A DNA stretch of 64,000 bases from an uncultured Eubacterium sp. (GCA_905234995.1 CAJOJV010000001.1:39458-103457); one strand, 5' to 3'. Shown: positions 9,288 through 64,000, numbered from the stretch's first letter. Notes: generated by a model from the sequence alone, not told the origin. A program made the numbers and translations.

Positions 9288-9290
9288 AAA

Positions 9291-10550
9291 TCAATATTCA
9301 AGATATGGCGCATATTTCTGAATTAAGGCTTTGAATTCGGTATAGGTTTCCGCGGTATAAAGATTTCTCTTTGTATCGTGGAAGAAATAATAATCGTTTG
9401 TGTCTTCAGGATAAAGTGCCGCCTGAATAGCGTCATATCCGGGATTACAAATCGGGCCCTCGGGAAGACCGATAACGGTTGAGGTTGAATTTGTATTATA
9501 ATAATTCAGATAGTAATCCGAGGTGTGCGCTGAGGTTGAAGCAATTGCAGGCGCAACCTTATTCTTGATATAGTCAGAGGTTGACTGACAGCCGAGGGAG
9601 GGATAATTCGTTTTATCGGCAAGGCGGTTTTCAATTACGGAAGCAATTGCCTTCATCTGATCGGTGTTGCCGGCTTCCGCCTGCACGATTGAAGCAATAG
9701 TCATTATCTCATACATTGAAAAGCCAAGCTCCTCTGCTCTTTGCCTGTCTTCCTCTGAAATCTTATTCTCTGTGTTTTTAAGGAAGGTTTCAATTGTGCT
9801 TGAAGCACTTTGACCTACATAGAATTCATAAGTGTCCGGGAACAAATAGCCCTCCAATCTATAAGGCACGGTTTCCTTTGCCTGAAGATTGGAAACAAGA
9901 GAGTACGTGAAATTGGTGGATTCAATAACTGAAAGCAAAGCCGCCTTATCGCAGACCTCGTTATCAACAAGCTTATCAATAATATCTGCAACAGTGTAGC
10001 CCTCTGGTATTGTTATTCTGACGGTTTCGCTTGATTCGGGGTCACCCATCATATTTATAAGCATTCCCTCAAGCCCCATCTTGCCGTTAAGATAATATAC
10101 TCCGGCATCATATGGAGGATTAACGCTGTATTTACCTATAAACTTATCCATAAAATTAATATAGAATTTACAGAACATTCTGCACTTAATAAGACCGTTA
10201 TCTGCAAGCAAATCAATTGCTTCTGAGGAAGTAGGAATTTCCTCTGTATAGCTGATTGTAACCGTAGATTTAGTTTTTGTAATGCCGAAAATATCGTTAA
10301 GGCAGAATATTGCATAAACGGAAAGCAGCATTGAAACCGCTATAACGATTATAAAAAACAGATAAGCAGACGCAACGCCGTTATTATTCTTTTTTTTCGG
10401 CTTTTTTACAAGCGTAGCAGAATTCTGAATAGTGGCTTTATCAGACTTATATTTTTTTGAATAATCCTGATTAGTGAAATAAATATCACTGCTGCCCGTG
10501 TCTGTATTTACGGGGTTAATTCCTGTTTCTTCAAGGTTAAAATCAGCCAT
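9291..10550 (-). CDS. mltG: endolytic murein transglycosylase MltG (YceG-like)
   Basis: 419 aa with a single TM after a basic N-terminus. YceG motifs are FPDTYEF, SIVQAEAG and GLPEGPICNPG. Confidence 0.9.
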   Translation of the reverse strand: MADFNLEETGINPVNTDTGSSDIYFTNQDYSKKYKSDKATIQNSATLVKKPKKKNNNGVASAYLFFIIVIAVSMLLSVYAIFCLNDIFGITKTKSTVTISYTEEIPTSSEAIDLLADNGLIKCRMFCKFYINFMDKFIGKYSVNPPYDAGVYYLNGKMGLEGMLINMMGDPESSETVRITIPEGYTVADIIDKLVDNEVCDKAALLSVIESTNFTYSLVSNLQAKETVPYRLEGYLFPDTYEFYVGQSASSTIETFLKNTENKISEEDRQRAEELGFSMYEIMTIASIVQAEAGNTDQMKAIASVIENRLADKTNYPSLGCQSTSDYIKNKVAPAIASTSAHTSDYYLNYYNTNSTSTVIGLPEGPICNPGYDAIQAALYPEDTNDYYFFHDTKRNLYTAETYTEFKALIQKYAPYLEY

Positions 10551-10552
10551 AT

Positions 10553-11116
10553 TTAATCCTCCTCGGTAGTTTTTATTACTCGCATATCGGTAATGATATA
10601 ATCAACCTTAATGTCAAATTTATCTTTTGGTAATACGTCTGCAACAAGCTCATCATAGCATAAGCCTATCGTCGTGAATTTAAAGTCGGCAAGGAAGCGG
10701 TCGTAGTAGCCTCCGCCGTAGCCAAGTCTGAATCCACGCAAATCATAAGCATAAGCGGGCACAATGCAAACGGCGTTGGTAAAGCAATCCAATGCTTTGC
10801 ATTTTTCTGTGTCAGGTTCCTGAATACCGTATTTCCCTGACTTCAGCTCGGTGAAATCCTTTATTCGGTAAAACTGCATAACTCCCTTATTTTCATGGCA
10901 TACGGGTAGCAACAGCTTTTTTCCGTCCTCAATTGCTTTTGATATAATTTCTAACGTGCCGATTTCACTTTTAATCGGGTAATAGCAAAGTATTTCATCT
11001 GCGCCTTTATAAAAATCAGAGTTGAGAAAAGAAGCGGCAATTACGCTGTCTTTTTTTAATTTATCGGAAATGCCGTTTCTTAATTCGGCATATTGCTGTC
11101 TTAATTTACCCTTCAT
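10553..11116 (-). CDS. 5-formyltetrahydrofolate cyclo-ligase
   Basis: Carries the MTHFS family motif LGYGGGYYDRF. The internal ATG at 11116 (MKGKLRQQY) avoids a 100-nt overlap with the upstream DJ-1 gene, so the track start at 11209 was trimmed. Confidence 0.8.
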   Translation of the reverse strand: MKGKLRQQYAELRNGISDKLKKDSVIAASFLNSDFYKGADEILCYYPIKSEIGTLEIISKAIEDGKKLLLPVCHENKGVMQFYRIKDFTELKSGKYGIQEPDTEKCKALDCFTNAVCIVPAYAYDLRGFRLGYGGGYYDRFLADFKFTTIGLCYDELVADVLPKDKFDIKVDYIITDMRVIKTTEED

Positions 11117-52983: not shown

Positions 52984-55900
52984 ATGGATATAACGGTTTC
53001 AACAAAGAAGCGCTTCACAAATGCTTTTTTTAACGGTGAGGTTATAAACTATATTATTTCTGTTTTGGCTTCTTTTCTTACAATAATTTGCTTTAAACAG
53101 CTTTTTAAAACCTTTTTCGGGATTAAAACAAATATCGCTTGTCTGCTTGCATTTATAATCGGTGAGCTTGTTCTGTTCCTTTTGGAAAAATTCTTTGTAT
53201 ACAGAAGCAACGCGCTCAACGGCGGCTTTCTGCAGATTATATATGCAATACTTAACGCAGGCGTTCATCTCGGTTTTTTTGCCGCATTTTCTTTTCTCGG
53301 CAATTTAATCGGCATAGCGTCATCAGCGATTTGGCTGTTTGCCTTTGTCTTTATTTCAATATTGAATTATGCCGCGTCAAGAATACTGATTTTTGACTGC
53401 TTAAAAAACGCAAGCGAGTTTAAAAAAGGCAGAGTTTACAGATGCTTTTTCAGAAACAGATTTGTTGTGCTTTCAGCCGTCGTTTCATTTTTGCTGCTTG
53501 CATTTATTTATTCCGTTTATAAAACCTTTCCGTTTGGAGACATAACTATTCTCAGAATGGATTTATATCATCAGTACGGGCCGCTTTTCACGGAGCTATA
53601 CGACAGAGTCGTTCAGCGAAAAAGCTTCCTTTACAGCTGGACCTCGGGCGGAGGCTCAAGCTTCCTCGGAAATTATTTCAACTATCTTGCAAGCCCGTTT
53701 TCCGCATTAATTTTCCTTTTTGACAGGAAGGATATTCCCTACGCAATTTCTATGATTGCAGGGCTTAAAAGCGTTTTCAGCGCTGCGTTTTTCACCTTCT
53801 ATATCAAAAAAAGCCTCAGCAGACATTCTGCAGCTTCTGCGGCTTTTGGCGTTATGTATTCCTTAAGCGCATATTTTCTTGCTTATTACTGGAATGTTAT
53901 GTGGCTTGACGGAATGATGATTCTTCCGTTAATAACACTCGGAATTGAGAATATTGTTAACAAAAGAAAAAACGGACTTTTTCTGATTTCCTTAGTATAT
54001 ATTTTTTATTCAAGCTACTATATCGGATATATGACGGCGATATATTCCGTAGTTTATTTTCTTGCATACTTTCTGCTCACATCTCCCGATAATCCTATTA
54101 AATTTACTTCAGAAAAAGGCGGCTTTGCAGGGTTTATCGACAGATTAAAGAACAACAGATTTGTTGACAGAGGGCTTGCCTTTGCCTCAACCTCCGTTAT
54201 TGCAGGATTAATCTGCGCGGCATTTTTGATTCCCGTATTCTTTATTTTAAGAAGCTGCAGCGCAACCTCCGATGATTTTCCGTCAGGATTAAGCATATAT
54301 TTTAATCTTTTTGATTTTTTACAGACGCATTTTGCAGGTCTGAAAACAACGATACGTTCAAGCGGAGAGGACGTGTTACCTAATATATACTCCTCTGTTT
54401 TAGCGCTGATACTCGTTCCCCTGTTTATGATTAACAAGGAAATCAGAATCAGAGAAAAAACGATTTATGCTTTGCTGATAGGCTTTTTCCTTATATCGTT
54501 TAACCTTAATTATGCAAACTTTTTCTGGCACGCACTTCATTTCCCGAATGATTTGCCGTACAGATTCTCTTATATGTACTCTTTCCTGTTGCTTGTGATT
54601 GCATTTAAGAGTCTTATGAAATTAAAGGGTATCGACATAAAGGAAATCGGAATTTGCTCATTTATATGGATTGCAATTATTGCCGTTTCGTCTGAGCTTC
54701 CCACGGAAAAATTCAGAGAAGCTACGCCGTATATTTGCCTCGGCTTCATTCTTACATGGACGCTCGTGCTGTTTCTCATTAAGAACAAAACCTACACAAA
54801 GAGCATTATTTCTTTGATATTCTTTGCTGCCGTTATCTGCGAGGCTATTCTCGGCGACATTAATTCCGATTCTTTAAGCTTTTATAACAGCCTCAAGGAT
54901 TACAACGTTAATTATTCAGATTACACAGCCGCCTCTGATTACATTAGGGAAAACGATGACGGCGATTTCAGATATGAGCTTTGCAGGCTTAACACGCGAA
55001 TGGACGATTGCCTTTACGATTTAGAGGGAATGAGTATATTCTCATCAATGGCTTATGAAAAATATTCGGGTCTTCAATACTCTCTCGGCAACTACGGCAA
55101 CAGAATTAACAGCTTCACTTATAACACGCAAACCCCGGTTTATAACTTAATGTACAACATTAAGTATCTTATTTATAAAAACGAGGGCACGCGTCCGTCA
55201 ACTCAACTTTTCACAAAATACTACAACGTCAACGAGGAATGCTCAGTTTATGAAAATGATTATTTCCTGCCGAAGGCATTTTGTGTAAACAGAGACATTG
55301 ATATCTGGAGCACCGCGGAGGGCAATCCGTTTACTGTTCAGGCTGATTTCTTTACGCTTGCAACGGGCTTTTCAGGGGTGTTCACACCCGTTCAATTCAC
55401 AAGCACAAGCTTCACGGGCTTAAGCGGCAACGATATTACCGAAATGGGCACGCAATGGATTACAAAGCAGGCAGGCACAAGCTATTCAACTCTTGATTTT
55501 TCCTTTGACGTACAAAGCAGCGGAAACACATATATTTATGTTTCATGCAAGGAATTATCAAACATAGATGTGTCAACCGAAGATTCTGTAAACAGCTATA
55601 ATATCAGCACGCCATATATCATTGATTTAGGCTACTACGATGAGGGCAGCCACATTAACGTTTCTGTTGACTGTAGCGGGCTGAAGGATGGCGAAAGCGG
55701 AGTCGAAATTTTTGCATACAGCCTTAATCAGGAGGTGCTTGACGCAGGCTATAACGCGCTGAAAGATGGCGCAATGGAGGTTACAAAGTCAACTGACACA
55801 AAGCTTATCGGCACGGTTGTATCAAGCGACAACAACATTCTTTATTCCTCAATCCCCTATGACGAGGGCTGGAGCGTTTATATTGACGGCGAAAAGCAAA

Positions 55901-56118
55901 AAACCTTTGAAATCGGCGATTGCCAGCTTGGCGTTATGATTAAGCCCGGCGAACACACAATTGAATATTCTTACTCTCCTAAAGGTCTTAAAGCAGGCGT
56001 TGCCGTCAGCGCCGCAACGATTATCTGCCTTATCGCCTATGCTGTTTACGAGGCAACTAAAAAGCCAAAAGAAACAGCAAATAAATCAAATGGTGACAAT
56101 TTAGTTAAAACTATGTAA
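52984..56118 (+). CDS. GtrA-like domain fused to YfhO family membrane glycosyltransferase
   Basis: 1044 aa. Residues ~1-140 form four TM helices ending in NYAASRILIFD (GtrA-like). The remainder carries MDLYHQYGPLF...SWTSGGGSSFLGNYFNYLASPF and many TM helices (YfhO family), plus a large extracytoplasmic C-terminal domain and a final TM. Confidence 0.8.
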   Translation: MDITVSTKKRFTNAFFNGEVINYIISVLASFLTIICFKQLFKTFFGIKTNIACLLAFIIGELVLFLLEKFFVYRSNALNGGFLQIIYAILNAGVHLGFFAAFSFLGNLIGIASSAIWLFAFVFISILNYAASRILIFDCLKNASEFKKGRVYRCFFRNRFVVLSAVVSFLLLAFIYSVYKTFPFGDITILRMDLYHQYGPLFTELYDRVVQRKSFLYSWTSGGGSSFLGNYFNYLASPFSALIFLFDRKDIPYAISMIAGLKSVFSAAFFTFYIKKSLSRHSAASAAFGVMYSLSAYFLAYYWNVMWLDGMMILPLITLGIENIVNKRKNGLFLISLVYIFYSSYYIGYMTAIYSVVYFLAYFLLTSPDNPIKFTSEKGGFAGFIDRLKNNRFVDRGLAFASTSVIAGLICAAFLIPVFFILRSCSATSDDFPSGLSIYFNLFDFLQTHFAGLKTTIRSSGEDVLPNIYSSVLALILVPLFMINKEIRIREKTIYALLIGFFLISFNLNYANFFWHALHFPNDLPYRFSYMYSFLLLVIAFKSLMKLKGIDIKEIGICSFIWIAIIAVSSELPTEKFREATPYICLGFILTWTLVLFLIKNKTYTKSIISLIFFAAVICEAILGDINSDSLSFYNSLKDYNVNYSDYTAASDYIRENDDGDFRYELCRLNTRMDDCLYDLEGMSIFSSMAYEKYSGLQYSLGNYGNRINSFTYNTQTPVYNLMYNIKYLIYKNEGTRPSTQLFTKYYNVNEECSVYENDYFLPKAFCVNRDIDIWSTAEGNPFTVQADFFTLATGFSGVFTPVQFTSTSFTGLSGNDITEMGTQWITKQAGTSYSTLDFSFDVQSSGNTYIYVSCKELSNIDVSTEDSVNSYNISTPYIIDLGYYDEGSHINVSVDCSGLKDGESGVEIFAYSLNQEVLDAGYNALKDGAMEVTKSTDTKLIGTVVSSDNNILYSSIPYDEGWSVYIDGEKQKTFEIGDCQLGVMIKPGEHTIEYSYSPKGLKAGVAVSAATIICLIAYAVYEATKKPKETANKSNGDNLVKTM

Positions 56119-56124
56119 CTAAGG

Positions 56125-56153
56125 TTTACATTAAATAAATAATAATGTAAAAT
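56125..56153 (+). promoter_or_regulatory. sigma-A type promoter for prs
   Basis: TTTACA (56125..56130), a 17-nt spacer, then TAAAAT (56148..56153). AAGGAG and the ATG at 56212 follow. Confidence 0.55.
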
Positions 56154-56211
56154 ACAGGCGAAATTAATAATGCCACGGTGATTTTCACCATTAAAGCAAA
56201 GGAGATTCGTT

Positions 56212-57390
56212 ATGGCAAGATTAACTGCACTTCCGTTAGACAACATTCCTTACGGACCGCTCGGTATTATTGCAATGCCCGGATGTGAGGCTCTCGCTGA
56301 AAAGATTGATAAGTATCTCGTTCAATGGAGAAAAACTCAGGCACAGGAGCACAAGGATAACATCTGCTTCTACGGCTATGCACGGGACACTTATCTTATC
56401 AACGTTAGTGTTCCGCGTTTCGGAAGCGGCGAAGGCAAAGCCGTTATTAACGAGAGCATCAGAGGTTATGACCTTTATATCGTTACCGATTGCTTTAACT
56501 ACAGCGTAACCTACAAAATGTACGGAATGACAGTTCCTAAGTCGCCGGACGACCATTACTCTGACGTTAAAAGAATTATCTCCGCAGTTTCATCAAAGGC
56601 AAAGCGCATTTCCGTAATTATGCCGATGCTTTATGAAGGCCGCCAGCATAAAAGAGCAAGCCGCGAATCGCTTGACTGCGCAATGGCTCTACAGGAGCTT
56701 GTTGAGCTTGGTGTTGAAAACATAATCACCTTTGACGCGCATGACCAGAGAGTGCAGAACTCCATTCCTCACAAATCCTTTGAGAACGTTATGCCGACCT
56801 ATCAGATGATTAAAACGCTTGTTAACACGGTTGACGATTTAACCGTTGATAAGGACCACCTTATGATTATCTCACCCGACGAGGGTGCGCTTTTCAGATG
56901 TATTTACTTTGCAACCCAGCTTGGCGTAAATCTTGGTATGTTCTATAAAAGGCGCGATTATACACGAGTTGTTAACGGCAGAAATCCGATCGTTGAGCAT
57001 CAGTATCTCGGCGATTCCGTTTGCGGCAAGGATATCATTATCGTTGACGATATGATTTCCTCAGGCGAATCAATGCTTGACGTTGCAAGAAAGCTCAAGG
57101 ATCTCGGCGCAGGCAGAATATTCGTCTGCACAACCTTCGGCCTTTTTGCTAACGGACTTGAGGTATTCGATAAAGCTTATGAGGAAGGCACCTTTGCAAG
57201 AGTATTCACAACAAACGGCGTTTATCAGACCCCCGAGCTTCTTTCAAGAGAATGGTACACCTCCGTTGACCTCTCCAAATACATCGCGTATTTCCTTGAT
57301 ACGCTTAACCACGATTTATCTGTTGCAACTCTGCTTGATACCTCGCAGAAGATTGACAATATTTTAAGAGAAAAAGGACTGAAAGCATAA
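56212..57390 (+). CDS. prs: ribose-phosphate pyrophosphokinase (long form)
   Basis: 392 aa. Has the PRPP synthetase N-terminal domain, the DAHD motif and the PRPP-binding loop IIVDDMISSGES. It is longer than the classical ~315-aa Prs. Confidence 0.85.
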   Translation: MARLTALPLDNIPYGPLGIIAMPGCEALAEKIDKYLVQWRKTQAQEHKDNICFYGYARDTYLINVSVPRFGSGEGKAVINESIRGYDLYIVTDCFNYSVTYKMYGMTVPKSPDDHYSDVKRIISAVSSKAKRISVIMPMLYEGRQHKRASRESLDCAMALQELVELGVENIITFDAHDQRVQNSIPHKSFENVMPTYQMIKTLVNTVDDLTVDKDHLMIISPDEGALFRCIYFATQLGVNLGMFYKRRDYTRVVNGRNPIVEHQYLGDSVCGKDIIIVDDMISSGESMLDVARKLKDLGAGRIFVCTTFGLFANGLEVFDKAYEEGTFARVFTTNGVYQTPELLSREWYTSVDLSKYIAYFLDTLNHDLSVATLLDTSQKIDNILREKGLKA

Positions 57391-58077
57391 ATGAGCGAAG
57401 ATAATAAAGACTATTTTGGCTTGAATAACAAAGAGGAAGAACTTAAGCCTGCTGAAGGCGGCAAGCTAAATGAAGATGCTTCTGCGGAAAAGGCTGGTGA
57501 AAAACCCGCCAAGGCAAAGCTTACCTTTTCAATCGGTCAGGTTATCCTGATTGTTGTAATAGCACTCATTGCCGCATTCGCAATCGGCGTTACCACAGTC
57601 AGCCTAATTAAAGACGTTAACCCCGTTTCTTATATTTCCGGCGAGCTTCACAAGGCTAAGCTTGTTAATAAGTGGCAAAGCCAGGACGCTCCAGGGCTTT
57701 CGGCATACGAATTCTTTGAAGACGGAACCTATAGCTCATATATTTCAACCTTCTCCTTCAAAGGTAATTACTCTGTTCAGGGCGATAAGCTGACGCTGAC
57801 TAATCCTGAATCCGGTCAAACTATAGTTTATCAATACAGCATTGTCGGTAATACGCTCACAATTACGCTAATAGAGGAAAACGGAGTTCAGTTTAACGAC
57901 AGAAATCCGCTTAAGTTTGACAGGGTTGATATGTTCAATCAAAAATCCTTGTCCGATATGCTTGAGGATTTACAGGAACAGGCAGAAGCTTCAACCGAAG
58001 AGGATACTTCTGAGGAAGTAACAAGCGAAGAAGCAACTTCTGAGGAAGCCGCAACCGAGGTAACTACAGCTGAATAA
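57391..58077 (+). CDS. hypothetical membrane-anchored protein with lipocalin-like (DUF5640-like) domain and acidic TSEE-repeat tail
   Basis: 228 aa with one TM (VILIVVIALIAAFAIGV) and a beta-rich segment (FEDGTYSSY...GNYSVQGDKLTL...YSIVGNTLTI). The C-terminus reads EEDTSEEVTSEEATSEEAATE. The ATG immediately follows the prs TAA. Confidence 0.6.
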   Translation: MSEDNKDYFGLNNKEEELKPAEGGKLNEDASAEKAGEKPAKAKLTFSIGQVILIVVIALIAAFAIGVTTVSLIKDVNPVSYISGELHKAKLVNKWQSQDAPGLSAYEFFEDGTYSSYISTFSFKGNYSVQGDKLTLTNPESGQTIVYQYSIVGNTLTITLIEENGVQFNDRNPLKFDRVDMFNQKSLSDMLEDLQEQAEASTEEDTSEEVTSEEATSEEAATEVTTAE

Positions 58078-58095
58078 CAGATTTAAAAAAAACTA

Positions 58096-58125
58096 AAAGC
58101 ACTCTTGAAAAAGAGTGCTTTTTAC
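58096..58125 (+). terminator. rho-independent terminator after the 57391..58077 gene
   Basis: AAAGCACTCTT-gaaa-AAGAGTGCTTT followed by TTAC TTT. Confidence 0.8.
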
Positions 58126-58205
58126 TTTATAAAAGTCCCCTGCTCTGCCAATAATAATAGTGTGCTTATTTCTTACCATTACATAAACATAAAGGGAATG
58201 ATTAT

Positions 58206-58976
58206 GTGCAGTATAACAAGGTTGAAATATGTGGGATAAACACAAGCAGCATTAAGGTGCTCAGCGAAAAGGAAAAGATGGAGCTTTTAAGAAAAAGCCG
58301 TGCAGGCGATAAAGCTGCACGTGATAAGCTGATTGAGGGTAATCTGCGCCTCGTACTATCCGTCGTGCAGCGTTTTCAGAACAGGGGTGAAAATCCCGAC
58401 GACCTTTTTCAGGTGGGCGTTATCGGCCTCATTAAGGCTATTGACAACTTCAATTTAGACCTCGACGTAAAATTCTCAACGTATGCAGTCCCTCTTTGCA
58501 TAGGCGAGGTGAGGAGATATTTGCGAGATAACAGCTCATTGCGCGTGAGCCGTAGCTTGAAGGACACCGCATACAAGGCAATGAAGGTTAAAGAGGAGCT
58601 CACAAACAAGAATAATACGGAGCCTACGGTTGAGGAAATTGCCGAGGCAATAGGCGTTAAAAAATCCGACGTTGTGCTTGCACTTGAAGCGGTCGTTGAA
58701 CCCGTTTCGCTGTACGAGCCCGTGTATAATGACGGAGGCGATACCATATACGTTATGGACCAGGTAGGCGACCGAAACACAGACAGCGACTGGATTGACG
58801 AGATTTTGATACGTGATGAAATTAAGAATTTAGAGCCGCGAGAAAAGAATATTTTATATCTTCGCTTTATGCAGGGCAAAACGCAAATGGAGGTTGCGCA
58901 GGAAATCGGAATCAGCCAGGCTCAAGTCAGCCGCCTTGAAAAAAACGCCCTTCGCAGAATCAAAGAGCACAAGTAA
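58206..58976 (+). CDS. sigG: sporulation (forespore) sigma factor SigG
   Basis: 256 aa, GTG start. NKVEICG..., GNLRLVLSVVQRF, DDLFQVGVIGLIKAIDNF, KFSTYAVP, IYVMDQ and GISQAQVSRLEK align closely by eye with Bacillus subtilis SigG. Confidence 0.88.
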   Translation: MQYNKVEICGINTSSIKVLSEKEKMELLRKSRAGDKAARDKLIEGNLRLVLSVVQRFQNRGENPDDLFQVGVIGLIKAIDNFNLDLDVKFSTYAVPLCIGEVRRYLRDNSSLRVSRSLKDTAYKAMKVKEELTNKNNTEPTVEEIAEAIGVKKSDVVLALEAVVEPVSLYEPVYNDGGDTIYVMDQVGDRNTDSDWIDEILIRDEIKNLEPREKNILYLRFMQGKTQMEVAQEIGISQAQVSRLEKNALRRIKEHK

Positions 58977-58978
58977 AA

Positions 58979-59008
58979 AAGCAAGGCATCATTTGATGTC
59001 TTGCTTTT
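58979..59008. terminator. bidirectional terminator shared by sigG (+) and the PqqD/kinase operon (-)
   Basis: AAGCAAGGCATCA-tt-TGATGTCTTGCTT forms a 13-bp stem including one G-U pair. It is flanked by AAAAAA on the left and TTTTCGTTT on the right, and overlaps the last codons of the 58989..60164 gene. Confidence 0.7.
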
Positions 59009-60164
59009 CGTTTAGCTCAAAGGCTTTATATATTTCAAATCTGTCATTCGCACTGCTTAAGTCCTTAACTGCGCCTCCGTGCAAGGCAGCTTTAATGCCC
59101 CTGAACAAATAACGAAACGCCTGATAAATAAAAGCAAAGTGCCTGAGAAAAGGATGTTTTTGGCAGGCCTTCCAATTTTCCTGCCCGCTTGTCTGGAGCA
59201 TTTTAAACAGCTCTCTGTTTTTAATTGCTTTTTTTATTCTTAATGAAACACGCTCAGCGTCCGTTTCCTCTCTGCCGGTTTTGCTGCCGAAGTTACCCGC
59301 TTCAAAAATGCATTCCATAATAAACTCAAGGCGAGGAGCATCAACCTCATTGCACCACAGGATTTCGTCAGGCAGGGCAAGATATTTCCGGCAAAGCCTT
59401 GTAATTATAATGGCAAAATCGGTTAAGCCGCAGGCATCTGCCTTTGGCATAAAATCATTACGCCAGAAATCCAAATCAGAATGAGAATGAACAAACATTT
59501 CCCAATCTGTAATTTGGCGCAGACCCAAGCCCTGCCCTAAAATATGGTGGCGTATATGAGCCAAAATCAAAAGCCCGTTTATTGCCTCAGGAAGTACGGG
59601 AACGCAAAAGCCGTTAATACTGAGCTGCTGAATGTCGGAAAAAGACTCTGCAAGATATTCCTCAAGCCTCGGGCAATCCGTGCTGAAGCAATAATGAAGC
59701 TCAATACAAACGCCGTTCTTAGCATATGCCGCGTGTCGGTTTATATCCTCATGGTCAAGCAGATAAGCGTTATTAATTAAAACATCCTTTGCGCGCTCGT
59801 AATCCTCAACAGGAACGAGAATATCAATATCCCCCATTATGCGATTATGAGGGATGGGATAATACTTTGCTGCGCTGATTCCTTTAATAATAACAGAAGA
59901 AATCCGGTTATCCGAAAGAAGCTTTACAAGCATATTCTGCTCATAGAGCACTTTCATATAATGAGCACGGCAGCTCATCTGAGTTTCCTTAAAGCGAGCG
60001 CCATTCTCAGCAGGAACGGAGTCTGCGATAAGCGAGGTTACGGTTTGCTCAACGGATTCATCATATACTACATTCCAGTCAATACTGTCCGGAAGCTCAA
60101 TCGGGCACTGAAACAGAGCATTTTTAATTAATTCAAGCAAAACGCTTTGTTCTTTTTCAATCAT
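58989..60164 (-). CDS. uncharacterised nucleotidyltransferase (NTP_transf_5 / PF14907-like)
   Basis: 391 aa. The segment IIKGISAAKYYPIPHNRIMGDIDILVPVEDYERAKDVL matches my recollection of the family hallmark (KG..a...Y....R...DiDlLV). Overlaps the upstream gene by 8 nt. Confidence 0.7.
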   Translation of the reverse strand: MIEKEQSVLLELIKNALFQCPIELPDSIDWNVVYDESVEQTVTSLIADSVPAENGARFKETQMSCRAHYMKVLYEQNMLVKLLSDNRISSVIIKGISAAKYYPIPHNRIMGDIDILVPVEDYERAKDVLINNAYLLDHEDINRHAAYAKNGVCIELHYCFSTDCPRLEEYLAESFSDIQQLSINGFCVPVLPEAINGLLILAHIRHHILGQGLGLRQITDWEMFVHSHSDLDFWRNDFMPKADACGLTDFAIIITRLCRKYLALPDEILWCNEVDAPRLEFIMECIFEAGNFGSKTGREETDAERVSLRIKKAIKNRELFKMLQTSGQENWKACQKHPFLRHFAFIYQAFRYLFRGIKAALHGGAVKDLSSANDRFEIYKAFELNEKQDIK

Positions 60165-60888
60165 TCCTCATACCCTCATAAGCGGTAATTGCTGCATCAG
60201 GCAGCATATTGCAGCCAAGCCTGTAAAACCTCGTTGCAGCGCCGAATTTTTTAATAAGATTCATCGTTTTTAACATAGCCTCGGGATTTTCCGGTCTGTA
60301 AACCTGCTGAAACAATGCAGGAATAACCTCTGAAAACTTAACCTCGAAAATTTTGTTTTCCGCAGAGCGTTCAAGAAAGCAGACTGCTTTTAACAAAGCC
60401 GAGGTATTTTTATTAATATTCTCCTTGCCGGACCAAGGAGTGCCGTAAATAATGCAGCCGTCATCCGCAATTCTTATCAGCGGCTTATCTCCGTTAATAA
60501 TAAACGAGCCTTCAATATTTTCAAGCCACAATCGTGAATGAGTTGTTTTCCCAACGCCTGACGGAGCAGTAAATAAATAAGCCTTACCATCAGCACAAAC
60601 GGCAGAGCCGTGCATAAGAAGCACGTTATAGTCAAGAAGCCCTACGGCAATTTTTCTGTATACTGCAAGCGTTTCGAGATATGCATCGGAAAAAGCAACA
60701 ATCGGCCTGCCCTCAAAAGCTGCCTCTTTATTTGATTTATCTCGTTCAAAATCAATATCGCTTTGAGTAATTGAAACCGAAAATGCCTCAGGTTCATCGC
60801 AGATATAATCTCTGCACATATTAAATACTTCTTCAAAAATCGAATTTATGCCGATCGTTACATCGGCAAGCTTAATTTTAAAAAGCAT
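60157..60888 (-). CDS. HprK-related P-loop kinase-like protein
   Basis: 243 aa. LLMHGSAVCADGKAYLFTAPSGVGKTTHSRLW...INGDKPLIRI...GTPWSGK resembles the HPr kinase C-terminal/PEPCK-like P-loop fold of the peptide Ser kinases in Firmicute lasso clusters. Its ATG shares one base with the upstream TGA. Confidence 0.7.
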   Translation of the reverse strand: MLFKIKLADVTIGINSIFEEVFNMCRDYICDEPEAFSVSITQSDIDFERDKSNKEAAFEGRPIVAFSDAYLETLAVYRKIAVGLLDYNVLLMHGSAVCADGKAYLFTAPSGVGKTTHSRLWLENIEGSFIINGDKPLIRIADDGCIIYGTPWSGKENINKNTSALLKAVCFLERSAENKIFEVKFSEVIPALFQQVYRPENPEAMLKTMNLIKKFGAATRFYRLGCNMLPDAAITAYEGMRND

Positions 60889-61382
60889 CAGTTTTCTCCC
60901 GAAAAAACAGAGCGAAGCTTATTAAAAGCACGTTTTGCAAAACGCAGCAATTTCAAAGTAAAAAAACGAAAATGATACGGCGCACACCAGAATATAACAT
61001 AAAGCCTGTAAGAAAAATCAGTTGACTTAACGGTTTTACCGTTTCTGACTACAGCGTCCAAAACGCCGATAATGTTTTCACGGCTTACGGTTTCACCCTC
61101 AAGGCAGTTATCGCCGACAATCCAGAAGCTGCCGTCCTTATTCATTTTGATTATTCTGTGAAGCACGTAGTGCCCCCTGCCGATAACATTCGGGCGCACA
61201 AACAGAACAACGTCATATTTCTTCAATTCACCGCCGGCGCGCTTAATGTGCATAACGTCCTTACCCTCGCGAATAAGCGGGCGCATACTGACGCCAACGT
61301 TCGTGAAAATAATTGAGCCGTGCCTTTCAAGCTCCTCTTCAAAGGTTATAAATTGATTATCCAAAGGACCACGCTTTCTCAA
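60888..61382 (-). CDS. S24/S26 superfamily serine peptidase-like protein
   Basis: 164 aa. Motifs are GVSMRP (Ser nucleophile box), VLHRII and WIVGDN, followed by a hydrophobic/amphipathic C-terminal tail. The only in-frame start after the upstream stop is TTG at 61382, with no clear SD. Confidence 0.65.
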   Translation of the reverse strand: MRKRGPLDNQFITFEEELERHGSIIFTNVGVSMRPLIREGKDVMHIKRAGGELKKYDVVLFVRPNVIGRGHYVLHRIIKMNKDGSFWIVGDNCLEGETVSRENIIGVLDAVVRNGKTVKSTDFSYRLYVIFWCAPYHFRFFTLKLLRFAKRAFNKLRSVFSGEN

Positions 61383-61398
61383 AATTCATTTTTTCTGA

Positions 61399-63324
61399 CT
61401 ACATTCCCCACATATTATCCGTCGGGTCTGAGGTTAAAAGCTCAACCTTTTCGTTTGACTCGGTTTTCGGCATAAACGCCCTTGCGTCAATAACGGGGCG
61501 CTTTGTATCTGCAGGCGACATATCATAATACTGCAGGCTTGCTTTAACCGCTTCCTCATAGGTTACGTTTTCAACGCCGTTTTCAGTTAAGCGATATAGC
61601 TTCTGGCAAAGCTTAAGCGCACCCGGGCGGTGGGTTGAAACGATAATAGCCTTTGCGGGATGACGGCGAATAATGTTTTTAAGCACTCTTTCCTCCGTGT
61701 CAATATCAAGAGCGCTTGTCGCCTCGTCAAGCAGCAGAATGGGGCAATCTCTGACGAGTGCACGTGCAATAGCAAGGCGCTGCGCCTGACCCTCCGAAAT
61801 TCCCCTGCCCTTTTCACCGAGCGTGCCGTTAATATTATTTGGAATAAGAGAAACGAACTCCCATGCACAGGCAGTTTTAAGCGCGTCAATAATCTCCTCA
61901 TCGGTTGCATCGGGGCGCACCATTCGCATATTATCGGCAATCGTGCCGGAAAGCACGGTGTTGCCCTGCGGAACGTAAGCAAATAAGCGCCTTAAATCAG
62001 CGTTTACCGGAATAGGCTTGCCGTCCTTACCCGTCAGTGTAACCTCGCCCTGCTTTGGCTCAAGCATACCGAGCATAATTCTCATCATAGTCGTTTTGCC
62101 GCCGCCCGAGGAAGCAAGCACGGCAATTATTTCACCGGGGTTCGCCTCAAAGTTAAGGTTATTATATACGTTTTTATCATCATTATAACCGAAGCTGATA
62201 TTGCTCATTTTAACGGAAACGCCTTCTGAAGCAATCTTCAGCATCTTTTCATACGCCTCGGGGTTATGCTCCTCACGCGGAAGATCAACAAGCTCTCTGA
62301 CTCTTCGCACGGAAATGGCAGAATTAAGCATACCGGGGATTGTGCTTACAAGACTGTTAAACCTGCCGCTCAGGCTTGAGCGCTGCTGCAGGAAAAAGGT
62401 CATATCACCGTAAAGAATTTTGCCGTTCCACAGCAGGAACAGGCAGTAGCCGAAAGCAACCATTGAAACTATGGTTGAAACAATCGTGAGCATAATGCGG
62501 GTTTTGATTTCAAATTTATTATAATCAAGACTGAATTCCTTAAAGGTTTTTTGCCATTCGCGCAGCTTTTTGGAATAATAACCAAAAATGCCGAAGGACT
62601 TTATCATATCGAAATTATAAAAGGTTTCAACCTCAAAGCTCATCATACCCGATTGCAGCTCAAGCACGCGCTTTCTGTATTCCTGCATTTTGCGCATAAT
62701 ATAATGGCTCATAACAAGCAGGAACGGCGCAGAAAGAATTGCAATCCAAGCCATAGTAACGTCAAGCCTGAGAAGAACAACGAAGGTTAAAACGAAGGTA
62801 TAAACGTTAACGATAAGATTCGGTATCCAGCCGATTGCATTTCCCGATATCGTGCCGACGTCGCCGTTAAATCTGTTAAGCAAATCGCCGCTTGGATATT
62901 TGCTTAAGTCACTCCATTTGGCGTCAATAATTCTGTCAAAAATCTGCGCCTGAATATCGTTGTTGACATATATTGAAATCTTTGTGAAAATTCTGCTGCT
63001 GATGCTGGAGGTTACCAAGGAAAAGGCAGTCGTGCCGAGCATAATCGCAACGAGCAGCCAGAGCTTTTCCGTTTGCTTATCAACGATAATATTAATCAGC
63101 ATTCTGCCCACATACGCTGAGCCGAGCCCAAGGCTTGAGCCGATAATTCCAACGATAGTATAAAGCACGATTATCCATTTATACTTTTTTGAAAATGAAA
63201 AAATCCATTTCCAGTCCTTTATAAAATCGGTGAAGGTGCCGTCGTGAATAATATTCAAAAGCATTTGCAGGGCATTACTTTTCACGATGCGGTTAATGCC
63301 CGTGTATTTCTGTTTGTTTTCCAT
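61399..63324 (-). CDS. ABC exporter, fused permease/ATPase (no N-terminal C39 peptidase domain)
   Basis: 641 aa with a six-TM ABC_membrane region. Motifs are Walker A ASSGGGKTT, signature ISEGQAQRLAIARAL and Walker B ILLLDEATSALD. A ~60-aa C-terminal tail follows. An AAGGA SD is present. Confidence 0.88.
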   Translation of the reverse strand: MENKQKYTGINRIVKSNALQMLLNIIHDGTFTDFIKDWKWIFSFSKKYKWIIVLYTIVGIIGSSLGLGSAYVGRMLINIIVDKQTEKLWLLVAIMLGTTAFSLVTSSISSRIFTKISIYVNNDIQAQIFDRIIDAKWSDLSKYPSGDLLNRFNGDVGTISGNAIGWIPNLIVNVYTFVLTFVVLLRLDVTMAWIAILSAPFLLVMSHYIMRKMQEYRKRVLELQSGMMSFEVETFYNFDMIKSFGIFGYYSKKLREWQKTFKEFSLDYNKFEIKTRIMLTIVSTIVSMVAFGYCLFLLWNGKILYGDMTFFLQQRSSLSGRFNSLVSTIPGMLNSAISVRRVRELVDLPREEHNPEAYEKMLKIASEGVSVKMSNISFGYNDDKNVYNNLNFEANPGEIIAVLASSGGGKTTMMRIMLGMLEPKQGEVTLTGKDGKPIPVNADLRRLFAYVPQGNTVLSGTIADNMRMVRPDATDEEIIDALKTACAWEFVSLIPNNINGTLGEKGRGISEGQAQRLAIARALVRDCPILLLDEATSALDIDTEERVLKNIIRRHPAKAIIVSTHRPGALKLCQKLYRLTENGVENVTYEEAVKASLQYYDMSPADTKRPVIDARAFMPKTESNEKVELLTSDPTDNMWGM

Positions 63325-63448
63325 ATTGATTCCTTACAAATTTATTCTATGCTGCGCTCTAATTTAACACCTCATACGTCACTGCGTGACACCTTCCTCT
63401 CAAGGGGAAGGCTTATTCTCTACAAAGGACGTTACCCTGAACATCAAA

Positions 63449-63721
63449 TTATTGTATTAATAAGCCGAGGCGTGAAAGCGTGGTTAAAAACCCTGCAAGA
63501 GCCTGCCCGATTTCATCATCTGTTGATTCCGGATATTTTTCTTTAAGATGAGCGTGCACCTTATAAGGGTCCGTATCCTCCTTAAGCTGCTCCATAATAA
63601 CTGCGGAAACCTCATTGAGCTTAAGCATACCGTGGAATTTCTGCGCGTCCTCACCAACAACAACTGCAGAATATTCGCCCTGCTCCATTTCCATAATCAT
63701 AAATTCATATCTGAGTCTCAT
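63449..63721 (-). CDS. PqqD-family peptide-binding protein (RiPP recognition element-like)
   Basis: 90 aa. The layout is beta strands (YSAVVVGEDAQKFHGMLKL) then LNEVSAVIMEQL...KVHAHLKEKYPESTDDEIGQALAGFLTTLSRLGLL. This is the PqqD wHTH pattern (LN.t...i...l....eiv..l...y......dv..fl..L...gl). Confidence 0.7.
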   Translation of the reverse strand: MRLRYEFMIMEMEQGEYSAVVVGEDAQKFHGMLKLNEVSAVIMEQLKEDTDPYKVHAHLKEKYPESTDDEIGQALAGFLTTLSRLGLLIQ

Positions 63722-63751
63722 ATTTAAAACCTCTATATAATTAATAAATAT

Positions 63752-63780
63752 ACTTTATCATAATCAGCATTTTTTTGCAA
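63752..63780 (-). promoter_or_regulatory. possible sigma-A promoter for the PqqD-led operon
   Basis: The minus strand reads TTGCAA (63780..63775), a 17-nt spacer, then TAAAGT (63757..63752). An AGAGG SD and the ATG at 63721 follow. Confidence 0.4.
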
Positions 63781-63781
63781 C

Positions 63782-63808
63782 AAAAAAACTCCTCTGAAGT
63801 CAGAGGAG
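63782..63808 (-). terminator. rho-independent terminator after the partial upstream ORF
   Basis: The minus strand reads CTCCTCTG-actt-CAGAGGAG, a perfect 8-bp stem, followed by TTTTTTT. Confidence 0.85.
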
Positions 63809-63825
63809 CTTAGAATTTAAAACTA

Positions 63826-64000
63826 TTACTGCCAATAATTCTCGTAATATGTACGTCCATTTGTATAGTAAACTCCGTTATCATAAGAAGTTACTACATA
63901 TGTAGTCTTTGCAATATTTTCAATAACGGCAGCAGGAATAGGAGTACCATTAATGAAAACCAAACCAGATTGGGGTGAAGTAAGCAGCGACATATCATAA
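63826..64000 (-). CDS. 3' end of an unknown ORF with a Tyr/aromatic-rich C-terminus (5' end beyond window)
   Basis: Hand translation of the minus strand gives YDMSLLTSPQSGLVFINGTPIPAAVIENIAKTTYVVTSYDNGVYYTNGRTYYENYWQ*. The frame is open to the window edge. An in-frame ATG at 63993 would give a 55-aa product. Confidence 0.45.
   Translation of the reverse strand, partial: YDMSLLTSPQSGLVFINGTPIPAAVIENIAKTTYVVTSYDNGVYYTNGRTYYENYWQ

Follow-up and report, generated by a model that had tools for sequence, protein, structure and literature searches.

The closest described relatives of the locus reported here are the 'linear polyphosphorylated peptide' (LPP) clusters of Bacilli, a family described in May 2026 and represented by lppA-K-B-S-D-N of Paenibacillus alginolyticus DSM5050 (Popov et al., Nat Commun 2026;17:6633; PMC13381572). 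These clusters sit inside capsule loci, and their defining core is the co-occurrence of TIGR02228, PqqD, HprK-like/TIGR04249, NTP_transf_5 and TIGR02203/02204 (PMC13381572). RRE-dependent leader cleavage, Ser polyphosphorylation and a linear product were shown experimentally for the P. alginolyticus system, where the kinase phosphorylates the precursor itself and the unphosphorylated precursor is poorly cleaved (PMC13381572). The precursor, LppA, is 35-200 aa long; its N-terminus is conserved and its C-terminus variable, and its leader follows the consensus YxxPxVLxHQxIxFETxxS, with a [Y/W]xxP RRE-binding motif (PMC13381572). An Asn of LppB fixes the Pro kink of the leader and an Asp hydrogen-bonds the leader Tyr, the catalytic triad of LppS is S29/H68/D93, and NTP_transf_5 was inactive in the sole experimental test (PMC13381572). 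The studied peptidases make up cluster 1 of a similarity network with edge E values below 1e-23; clostridial peptidase/RRE pairs are confined to the supplement, where they form unstudied network clusters and their precursors are marked 'ND' (PMC13381572).

Here we analyse a five-gene operon at the end of a 64-kb stretch of DNA from an uncultured Eubacterium sp. (hereafter the window, meaning the whole stretch of 64,000 nt). We estimate a probability of about 80% that this operon and a precursor gene upstream of it are a divergent version, found in rumen Clostridia, of the LPP RiPP pathway. A preliminary description of the locus had taken the pathway to be uncharacterised, which the published account of the LPP family contradicts (PMC13381572).

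Organisation of the locus

The features discussed below are, in order of position:
58977-59008, no strand assigned: bidirectional terminator hairpin (14-bp stem, -19 kcal/mol, z -7.7)
58989-60164, minus strand: NTP_transf_5 gene, 391 aa, lppN-like (ORF call)
60157-60888, minus strand: HprK/PEPCK-fold kinase gene, 243 aa, lppK-like (ORF call)
60888-61382, minus strand: signal-peptidase-like gene, 164 aa, lppS-like (ORF call)
61399-63324, minus strand: ABC exporter gene, 641 aa, lppD-like (ORF call)
63325-63448, minus strand: 124-nt spacer separating the PqqD gene from the ABC gene; contains small hairpins (fold z-score -1.3)
63449-63721, minus strand: PqqD-type gene, 90 aa, lppB-like (ORF call)
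63752-63780, minus strand: promoter-like TTGCAA (63780-63775), 17 nt, TAAAGT (63757-63752), read from the sequence 5' of the PqqD gene
63786-63811, minus strand: intrinsic terminator hairpin 3' of the precursor gene (11-bp stem, U7 tail; scan and folding)
63826-64000, minus strand: 3' end of the lppA-like precursor gene, 133 aa (last 57 codons and stop; the full ORF extends to ~64227, past the window)

The ORF coordinates bear out the five packed minus-strand genes of the preliminary description, which, read from the PqqD gene onwards, are separated by 124 and 16 nt and then overlap by 1 and 8 nt. The motifs it had read were also recovered: the 164-aa protein carries GVSMRP and GDN, the 243-aa one HGSAV..DGKAYLFTAPSGVGKTT and the 391-aa one R..GDIDILV. 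The promoter-like site upstream and the bidirectional terminator downstream are both present where it had put them. The downstream hairpin lies between the NTP_transf_5 gene and a convergent sigma gene identified as sigG (NF006071, 402 bits against a cutoff of 372), is flanked by an A-run on one side and a U-run on the other, and overlaps the NTP_transf_5 gene at its stop and final codons. It is credible that it serves both genes as a bidirectional terminator. At the other end of the operon, TTGCAA-17-TAAAGT matches 8/12 consensus positions, which is under the promoter-scan threshold, and taken alone the site is therefore no better than chance. It should be noted that its location is a sensible one, straight after the strong terminator hairpin at 63786-63811, for which folding gave -16.4 kcal/mol (z -3.9). 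The folding of the PqqD-ABC spacer is not significant and a conserved ORF is absent from it; in the closest relative (L003) this spacer is only ~56 nt long.

The preliminary extent of five genes proved too small, as the conserved unit also includes the precursor gene and a gene for an acyltransferase-3-like (AT3-like) membrane protein. The latter, which here lies just outside the window, is tightly linked to the cassette in related loci and is nearly obligatory in this clade.

The precursor and its leader family

No precursor gene had been evident initially, but a gene for a 133-aa precursor lies directly upstream of the operon, ending at 63826. It is not recognisable from the window because just its last 57 codons are inside and its leader is outside; the full ORF was obtained from contigs L001 and L002, which overlap the window by 758 nt with 0 mismatches. 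The leader, MRITNPEINVILFSNEDVIATS, is encoded beyond the window end, and the core is a 110-aa, Cys-free protein with a C-terminal Gln.

Using a leader HMM, we found the consensus ΦxxPE[LM]xV[IV]RFxxxDVIx[TA]S in ~40 of 80 genomes, carried by small, hypervariable ORFs next to related cassettes. The family comprises 43 neighbouring ORFs of 28-140 aa with hypervariable cores, those of the clade being protein-sized (86-119 aa) and mostly ending in Gln. All 43 ORFs keep the leader Asp and Ser, and 33 of the 41 aligned by motif keep the Pro. Three residues before this Pro, Met is the commonest residue (24 of 41), followed by Phe (7), Ile (5), Leu (3) and Tyr (2), while Trp does not occur (0). At the conserved Ser these leaders have the block DVIx[TA]S where LPP leaders have FETxxS, and comparison of the clade leader with the LPP leader by reciprocal HMMs and hhalign gave nothing significant.

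Proteins encoded by the operon

The 90-aa protein matches PF05402 at 34.2 bits, over the gathering score, which upholds the PqqD assignment made earlier; by its sequence it is a discrete PqqD-type RRE, predicted to recognise the leader. Its family profile matches the lasso B1 proteins TbiB1 (5.6e-8), TfuB1 and PbaB1 (3.6e-5) as well as LppB (9x8z, 1.3e-3), placing it closer to the B1 proteins of lasso clusters than to LppB, with which pairwise comparison found no similarity. The residue corresponding to LppB N33 is Asn in every family member (22/22), and the equivalent of the Tyr-bonding Asp of LppB is not conserved, which fits the Tyr-less leader.

The 164-aa protein is an S26B (SipW/SEC11-type, archaeal/ER) Ser-His-Asp signal-peptidase homologue. 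Its best NCBIfam model, TIGR02228, matches weakly (E 2.9e-7, below cutoff), but the GxSMxP, LHR and GD columns of the family are invariant, including Ser32, His75 and Asp91. The family profile matches SEC11C/SEC11A with Ser, His and GDN aligned, and Foldseek matches of the AF2 model (pLDDT 89) are SpsB, UmuD', SEC11A, LexA and SipA. The protein is 28% identical to LppS (E 2e-12, pairwise), whose S29/H68/D93 corresponds to the invariant S32/H75/D91; this single LppS edge, the one compared, falls short of the 1e-23 that would join it to LPP cluster 1. Of the S24/S26 peptidase first proposed for the protease slot, the signal-peptidase fold in the position of a leader protease stands, and the family is S26B, not S24/LexA-like. 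Family S24 (LexA/UmuD, Ser-Lys dyad) was rejected on two counts: there is no PF00717 match, and the general base is the invariant His in LHR. The protein has no N-terminal transmembrane segment and carries C-terminal helices at residues 123-161; its substrate is probably a hydrophilic leader that the RRE presents in the cytoplasm, and not a hydrophobic Sec signal peptide.

For the 243-aa protein, an identity as an HprK/PEPCK-fold P-loop kinase is supported. It does not match PF07475, but its precomputed Pfam label (PF27840 ScmC) and the best PDB folds of its AF2 model (pLDDT 94), PEPCK and HprK/P at E ~4e-6, agree with it. HG...SGxGKTTH...NGDKP...GxPWxGKE is invariant in the family, and the protein shares 26% identity with LppK over 130 aa (E 7e-11). 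The 391-aa protein belongs to NTP_transf_5, as proposed (PF14907, 144.7 bits), the family of the 'putative NTP transferase' in LPP and paeninodin-type clusters (PMC13381572). Its pairwise similarity to LppN, a sequence taken from an OCR'd figure, is not significant (E 0.43), and an NTP_transf_5 gene was found at 22/80 related loci, being missing from many. The ABC exporter call was borne out by ABC_membrane and ABC_tran matches in the 641-aa protein, which has no C39 peptidase domain. Its best NCBIfam models, TIGR02204 and TIGR02203, also define the 'MsbA transporter' of LPP clusters (PMC13381572), and from its sequence the protein is classed as an MsbA-like ABC exporter.

Related loci and absent enzymes

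The absence of an Asn-synthetase-like cyclase, a transglutaminase-like B2 protease and a radical-SAM enzyme, first reported for the window, holds across all 64 kb and the 10 kb past position 64000. These 10 kb, where a cyclase and B2 protease had been thought worth looking for, contain the 133-aa precursor gene, a 389-aa membrane-protein gene, uvrA, uvrB and housekeeping genes. The PP-loop SGGxDS ORFs in the window and in 80 related loci are all NadE-/GuaA-like proteins, and a lasso cyclase or transglutaminase-like gene lies within 10 kb of the kinase gene in 0 of the 80.

The cassette recurs in dozens of related genomes, and the comparison of gene neighbourhoods that had been proposed found a conserved co-occurrence far above chance. 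Gene order is shuffled among the 80 loci, many of which are on truncated contigs, with S26-like genes at 53, PqqD genes at 53 and ABC genes at 39. Peptidase and PqqD genes are adjacent in most of them; in the window operon the PqqD gene is 2 kb upstream. Six loci have kinase-peptidase pairs without PqqD that adjoin TagG/TagH-type polysaccharide exporters, and in six distant relatives (L052, L053, L067, L071, L076, L080) the leader family, PqqD and an HprK-like protein occur with a radical-SAM/SPASM maturase and Cys-rich cores.

Proposed pathway and alternatives

The gene families, folds, catalytic residues, lack of a cyclase, co-occurrence and leader family are direct observations at the window locus, and we infer its chemical steps, its cleavage and phosphorylation sites and the roles of the NTP_transf_5 and membrane proteins as follows. 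The operon would be the biosynthesis and export part of an LPP-type cluster, with the minus-strand order lppB, lppD, lppS, lppK, lppN, and its substrate would be the 133-aa product of the gene immediately upstream, which has a terminator of its own. The PqqD protein would bind the leader strand I3-x-x-P6-E-I-x-V-I-L-F13 as an added beta-strand, in the manner of lasso B1 and LppB. The kinase would then phosphorylate the bound precursor at a Ser, perhaps repeatedly. The likeliest site would be Ser22, an invariant residue that closes the conserved D17-V-I-A-T-S22 block; this residue is the one local feature that would point to polyphosphorylation here. Presentation of the leader by the RRE to the Ser32/His75/Asp91 peptidase would lead to its removal, perhaps after Ile19 or Val18 (by analogy with FET/xxS of LppA, cut between T and x) or alternatively, if the -3/-1 rule of signal peptidases applies, after Ser22. 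NTP_transf_5 may add a nucleotide- or sugar-derived group to the phosphate, the ABC pump would export the linear product, and the AT3-like membrane protein may act on the exported product or protect against it. Binding, phosphorylation, cleavage and export of a linear peptide, as envisaged in the preliminary description, are demonstrated for the homologous P. alginolyticus gene set (PMC13381572) and predicted for the window locus.

A rather unlikely alternative is that the cassette performs leader-dependent secretion and processing of small proteins, either bacteriocin-like or of the cell surface, with the kinase, NTP_transf_5 and AT3-like protein acting mainly on an envelope glycopolymer or lipid. 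Protein-sized cores of 86-119 aa, the tight linkage of the AT3-like protein and the six PqqD-less pairs beside TagG/TagH-type exporters would all suit such a function, as would the capsule setting of the Bacilli clusters (PMC13381572). However, the homologous kinase acts on the precursor itself, whose unphosphorylated form is poorly cleaved (PMC13381572), and the leader-block Ser is invariant in 43/43 precursors, where the -1 position of a signal peptidase would also take Ala or Gly. The leader family also occurs on Cys-rich peptides beside radical-SAM peptide maturases, which likewise argues against this alternative.

It is very improbable that the locus is a member of the 'HPr-rel-A system' or a SynChlorMet (Scm) cassette, both of which are putative peptide-modification cassettes with HprK-related and PqqD proteins. 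The ScmC label of the kinase (PF27840), weak matches to TIGR04249 ScmC and TIGR04353 PqqD_rel_X, and the radical-SAM/SPASM enzymes that adjoin distant kinase relatives, as they do ScmC, recall these cassettes, but the scores are far under the curated cutoffs and the window locus has no radical-SAM gene. For HPr-rel-A (TIGR04352/04353/04355), PqqD_rel_X scored 14.1 bits against 35 and HprK_rel_A and HprK_rel_B gave no match at E up to 1, so the relation suggested earlier falls away under the NCBIfam cutoffs. ScmC (TIGR04249) scored 12.2 bits against a cutoff of 125, and the radical-SAM partners ScmE/ScmF are missing from the locus. To our knowledge, neither definition includes a signal-peptidase-like gene.

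It is scarcely tenable that the operon is instead the tailoring and export half of a paeninodin/pseudomycoidin-type lasso cluster whose cyclase and B2 protease are encoded at another site in the genome. Firmicute lasso clusters do have PqqD, HprK-like kinase, NTP_transf_5 and ABC exporter as their accessory set, the PqqD profile scores lasso B1 proteins above LppB, and ~1/3 of such peptidase genes in Bacilli adjoin lasso genes (PMC13381572). Against this, neither an Asn-synthetase-like nor a transglutaminase-like gene occurs in the window, over the next 10 kb or, at 80 related loci, within 10 kb of the kinase gene; the adjacent substrate has 133 aa, the cores lack the Gly1...Asp/Glu7-9 lasso pattern, and the cassette has a conserved, dedicated leader peptidase that is distinct from B2.

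Relation to known systems

With paeninodin/pseudomycoidin lasso clusters, whose HprK-like kinase polyphosphorylates a precursor Ser, the locus shares a B1-type PqqD RRE on an xxPxL leader strand, the kinase, a PsmN-type NTP_transf_5 and an ABC exporter, but it has a serine signal-peptidase homologue in place of cyclase and B2 protease, and far longer substrates. Radical-SAM/SPASM RiPP clusters (ranthipeptide/TIGR04463-like) resemble it through the distant relatives that pair leader family, PqqD and HprK-like protein with a maturase, whereas the window locus has a Cys-free core and no radical-SAM gene. The peptidase shares the GxSMxP, xHR and GDN motifs and the fold of SipW/SEC11 (S26B) and, unlike these, has no N-terminal membrane anchor.

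The likeness to LPP clusters extends over the whole gene set: a SipW-type Ser-His-Asp peptidase (TIGR02228 best model) beside a discrete PqqD RRE; an HprK-like kinase, NTP_transf_5 and an MsbA-like exporter, with models as in the published domain table; no macrolactam cyclase in the window, 10 kb upstream or the 80 related loci; a precursor N-terminus conserved with xxP-x-hydrophobic and ending in a conserved Ser, with hypervariable C-termini; and a link to polysaccharide-export genes at some loci. Unlike the described LPP clusters, this clade is hosted by rumen Clostridia, has only 26-28% identity to LppS/LppK and no pairwise similarity to LppB, and carries the leader [MFIL]xxPE[LM]xV[IV]RFxxxDVIx[TA]S in place of YxxPxVLxHQxIxFETxxS, together with an RRE in which the residue binding the leader Tyr is not conserved. 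Its cores have 86-119 aa and mostly end in Gln, whereas those of Bacilli are Gly/Asn/Pro/Lys-rich and ~45 aa long, and the AT3-like membrane protein is near-obligatory, compared with 21/126 neighbourhoods in Bacilli. We tentatively speculate that the clade of rumen Clostridia may form a subclass of its own, in which an RRE, a signal peptidase and an HprK-like kinase would mature ~90-120-aa Cys-free substrates with a conserved C-terminal Gln; the AT3-like protein might attach acyl groups to the exported phosphoprotein, tether it to the cell envelope or give immunity to it, the leader, having Met/Phe where Tyr/Trp would otherwise stand, might represent a third RRE specificity class, and the same leader might also be routed to radical-SAM maturases.

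Genomic context and products of the operon

The operon of five genes near the end of the window belongs to a divergent variant of the linear polyphosphorylated peptide (LPP) family of RiPPs, a variant with a wide distribution among uncultured Clostridia of the rumen and gut. A preliminary description had placed these genes on the minus strand, and an ORF check returned identical coordinates, the same junctions (+124, +16, -1 and -8 nt) and, in the ORF products, every sequence motif that had been quoted.

Features of the operon and its surroundings (window coordinates; L002 is a contig that matches and extends the window end)
58989-60164, minus strand: NTP_transf_5 gene (391 aa)
60157-60888, minus strand: HprK-like kinase gene (243 aa)
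60888-61382, minus strand: signal-peptidase-like gene (164 aa)
61399-63324, minus strand: ABC exporter gene (641 aa)
63449-63721, minus strand: PqqD-type protein gene (90 aa)
63786-63811: strong terminator, separating the 133-aa precursor gene from the operon's promoter-like site (terminator scan and fold)
63826 to ~64227 (L002:9495-9896): precursor ORF, ending in Gln
about 64319-65488 (L002:8234-9403), outside the window: 389-aa multi-pass membrane protein gene, with homologues in 32 related loci

The promoter-like TTGCAA-17-TAAAGT reported upstream is present (63780-63752), but it matches just 8/12 consensus positions and lies under the promoter-scan threshold. The downstream hairpin is strong (58977-59008; 14-bp stem, -19 kcal/mol, z -7.7); it has an A-run and a U-run on opposite sides, as expected of the bidirectional terminator proposed there, and lies between the operon and the convergent gene, which is indeed sigG (NF006071, 402 bits). 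Genes for a YfhO-family membrane protein (1044 aa), a ribose-phosphate pyrophosphokinase, a DUF5640-like protein and sigG occupy positions 52984-58976; related loci do not keep them beside the cassette, of which they form no part. The 124-nt spacer between the PqqD and ABC genes was considered as the site of a small ORF or a regulatory RNA, and this was rejected, as the fold is not significant and spacer length varies among relatives.

The 90-aa protein scores above the Pfam PqqD cutoff, and its family profile matches the lasso B1 proteins TbiB1 (5.6e-8), TfuB1 and PbaB1 (3.6e-5), as well as LppB (1.3e-3) of the LPP system of Paenibacillus alginolyticus (LppA, B, D, K, N and S); only this profile search succeeded, PDB searches with either the PqqD protein or the leader as a single sequence giving no match. 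The 641-aa protein, a half-ABC exporter, lacks a peptidase domain (top models TIGR02204 and TIGR02203, MsbA-like), and the 391-aa protein clearly belongs to NTP_transf_5 (145 bits). Compared pairwise with an LppN sequence taken from an OCR'd figure, the latter gave no significant similarity (E 0.43). The 164-aa protein gave no match in a Pfam search. Across its family the GxSMxP, LHR and GD columns do not vary, and in a profile they line up with the Ser, His and GDN that form the catalytic site of human SEC11C/SEC11A; the AF2 model of the protein (pLDDT 89) matches SpsB, UmuD', SEC11A, LexA and SipA. We therefore assign it to S26B, as a homologue of SipW/archaeal-type signal peptidases, and not to S24 as originally labelled; it lacks a membrane anchor at the N-terminus and carries long helices at its C-terminus.

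The 243-aa protein does not match Hpr_kinase_C, its family being labelled PF27840 ScmC in precomputed annotation. The motifs HG...SGxGKTTH...NGDKP...GxPWxGKE are invariant, and PEP carboxykinase and HprK/P are the top matches of its AF2 model (pLDDT 94). Membership of an HPr-rel-A or Scm cassette was rejected on scores under the curated NCBIfam cutoffs. An anti-phage defence system was also discarded, PADLOC returning generic ABC-ATPase matches only.

A precursor gene at the window edge and a membrane protein beyond it

Two metagenome contigs extend the window, with 0 mismatches across the 758 nt compared at its end. Past position 64000 they carry the remainder of a 133-aa ORF, whose final 57 codons lie inside the window (63826-64000), followed by the 389-aa membrane protein gene, uvrA, uvrB and housekeeping genes. 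The 10 kb read there encode no radical-SAM enzyme, and they also lack the cyclase and the B2 protease already noted as missing from the window. It is very unlikely that the operon forms one part of a lasso cluster that has been split: a cyclase just past the window is ruled out by this reading of 10 kb upstream and by a PP-loop motif scan, and among the best 80 loci around kinase relatives there is no Asn-synthetase-like family member and no SGGxDS PP-loop ORF except NadE- and GuaA-like proteins.

A precursor gene, of which none had been evident, exists at the window edge. Small ORFs adjoining the cassette in related loci have a common N-terminal block, M-K-[MFIL]-x-x-P-E-[MLV]-[EK]-V-[VI]-R-F-x-x-x-D-[VI]-I-[AV]-[TA]-S, whose positions we number backward with the invariant Ser as -1. 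The Asp and Ser are kept in 43/43 ORFs and the Pro in 33 of the 41 that are motif-aligned; the 133-aa precursor has I3, P6, F13, D17, S22 and the C-terminal Q133 as its key residues. Beyond the leader the sequences are hypervariable, and two classes can be told apart. Long cores (n = 30) span 65-119 aa, with the Cys-free ones at least 86 aa, and end in Gln (23/30) or Asn (3/30), while short cores (n = 11) are acidic or Cys-rich. The terminal Gln or Asn mostly closes a tail rich in aromatic residues, for example YYENYWQ or WTWQSQ. Owing to core hypervariability, a homologue search with the 133-aa precursor returned just 3 matches. The rest of the window holds no further leader-bearing ORF. Four related loci (L026, L031, L034 and L062) have two tandem precursor genes each, and in L026 the gene for the 389-aa protein is also present in two copies, each followed by a precursor gene.

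The 389-aa family is divergent and acyltransferase-3-like (AT3-like), with PF01757 found in 15 of 21 members (best E 8e-14) and not in the window-linked copy itself. AT3 enzymes carry a catalytic His in TM1; no His is invariant at that position in this family. The gene accompanies long Cys-free cores in 23/24 loci, the single exception being a 2.2-kb contig, and short cores in 0/10. The protein may serve in acylation, immunity or export.

Distribution and variation of the cassette

The kinase family comprises 4452 proteins at E up to 1e-3, and a species-representative genome scan placed relatives in at least 472 species-level genomes, nearly all of them rumen or gut Clostridia and including the cultured Ruminococcus albus KH2T6. 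In the best 80 loci the cassette reappears with its genes in shuffled order.

Components in the best 80 loci (many contigs are truncated)
Peptidase: 53/80
PqqD: 53/80
ABC exporter: 39/80
389-aa membrane protein: 32/80
NTP_transf_5: 22/80

In R. albus KH2T6 (locus L024) a PqqD-peptidase-kinase trio and a precursor candidate occur (6977-7120, minus strand; 9197-10735, plus strand). The candidate, of 36 residues, consists of the leader and an acidic core, GGGPFEEVGENEEE, and lies ~2 kb from the trio on the opposite strand; up to 7 kb from the kinase gene, no ABC, AT3 or NTP_transf_5 gene was detected. A 625-aa protein beside the candidate is a secreted repeat protein without a Pfam family and is therefore not a hidden cyclase. 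This cultured strain offers a possible experimental entry point.

In six loci (L052, L053, L067, L071, L076 and L080) the leader is found on Cys-rich short cores beside radical-SAM/SPASM maturase, PqqD and HprK-like genes, with a peptidase gene in all except L052. The maturases are related to TIGR04463 and PapB, with scores below cutoffs, and these loci are apparently natural hybrids of the LPP and ranthipeptide types. Maturase, PqqD and kinase genes are also present in L061, L063, L069 and L075, in which no leader ORF was detected.

Pairs of HprK-like and signal-peptidase-like genes adjoin TagG/TagH-type ABC-2 polysaccharide/teichoic-acid exporters in L038, L040 and L051, with neither a PqqD gene nor a leader ORF detected. 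In L043, L073 and L074 the kinase gene adjoins such exporters with no peptidase gene detected, and a PqqD gene is present in L074.

Comparison with published LPPs

Literature searches on PF14907, ScmC and the leader strings found nothing relevant, and the RRE-Finder and genome-mining literature examined makes no mention of the system; a full-text search for 'HprK-like' found the first description of LPPs, in Bacilli only (Popov et al., Nat Commun 2026; PMC13381572). The LPP core consists of the peptidase SpI (TIGR02228), a discrete RRE (PqqD), an HprK-like kinase matching TIGR04249 and TIGR04352, NTP_transf_5 and an MsbA-like exporter, without a cyclase (PMC13381572). LPP precursors have 35-200 aa and combine the conserved motif YxxPxVLxHQxIxFETxxS with a variable C-terminus; LppK adds as many as four phosphates to core Ser3, LppS (S29/H68/D93) cuts after T-1 solely when LppB presents the leader, and LppN was inactive in the expression host (PMC13381572).

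All five core families are present in the window's operon, and its peptidase and kinase are homologous to LppS (28% identity, E 2e-12) and LppK (26% identity over 130 aa, E 7e-11). Given these likenesses and the published experiments, the pathway that had been proposed, in which a linear peptide is bound, phosphorylated or nucleotidylated, cleaved and exported, appears to be largely correct, and its logic of binding, phosphorylation, cleavage and export is in effect confirmed by experiment in a distant relative (PMC13381572); a pathway of this kind can no longer be called uncharacterised. In an ungapped alignment from the Pro, F-E-T|x-x-S3 of LppA stands over x-D-V|I-x-[TA], and the invariant Ser comes one residue later. 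On this alignment the Ser would be the phospho-acceptor, with cleavage two to four residues ahead of it; alternatively, cleavage may follow the Ser, [AV]-x-S fitting the -3/-1 rule.

A serious alternative is that the kinase, the NTP-transferase and the AT3-like protein act on an envelope glycopolymer, the system being mainly a device for small-protein secretion. The kinase genes that adjoin TagG/TagH-type exporters in six loci, some paired with a peptidase, and the capsule-locus context of LPPs speak for it, whereas the invariance of the leader-block Ser and the published chemistry of the LPP kinase speak against it.

The Clostridial and published systems differ in several respects. Their leader families fail to cross-detect by HMM or hhalign, and the residue at Pro-3 is Met, Phe, Ile or Leu in Clostridial leaders instead of Tyr or Trp. 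In LppB, D70 hydrogen-bonds the leader Tyr and N33 fixes the Pro kink (PMC13381572); in Clostridial RREs the Asn aligned to N33 is invariant, whereas the residue aligned to D70 is variable and most often Ala, in keeping with the missing Tyr/Trp. The Clostridial leader code bears on the published idea that RRE specificity is set by the Tyr/Trp choice (PMC13381572). The window's peptidase would fall outside the studied network cluster at 1e-23, and Clostridial peptidase/RRE pairs (Dehalobacter, Anaerocolumna and uncultured Ruminococcus) figure in the published supplement only among the other clusters, their precursors being given as 'ND' (PMC13381572), the uncultured Ruminococcus peptidase sharing 30% identity with that of the window. 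The AT3-like partner is near-obligatory in the Clostridial clade, in contrast to 21/126 neighbourhoods in Bacilli, and the C-terminal Gln of the long cores is not seen in published Bacilli cores. Protein-sized Gln-terminated cores, the near-obligatory AT3-like partner and radical-SAM hybrids are all absent from the published work (PMC13381572). The clade supplies many new precursor/enzyme sets, with which reconstitution may be easier, and adds to the LPPs far larger substrates, conservation of Gln at the C-terminus, a dedicated partner in the membrane and natural radical-SAM hybrids.
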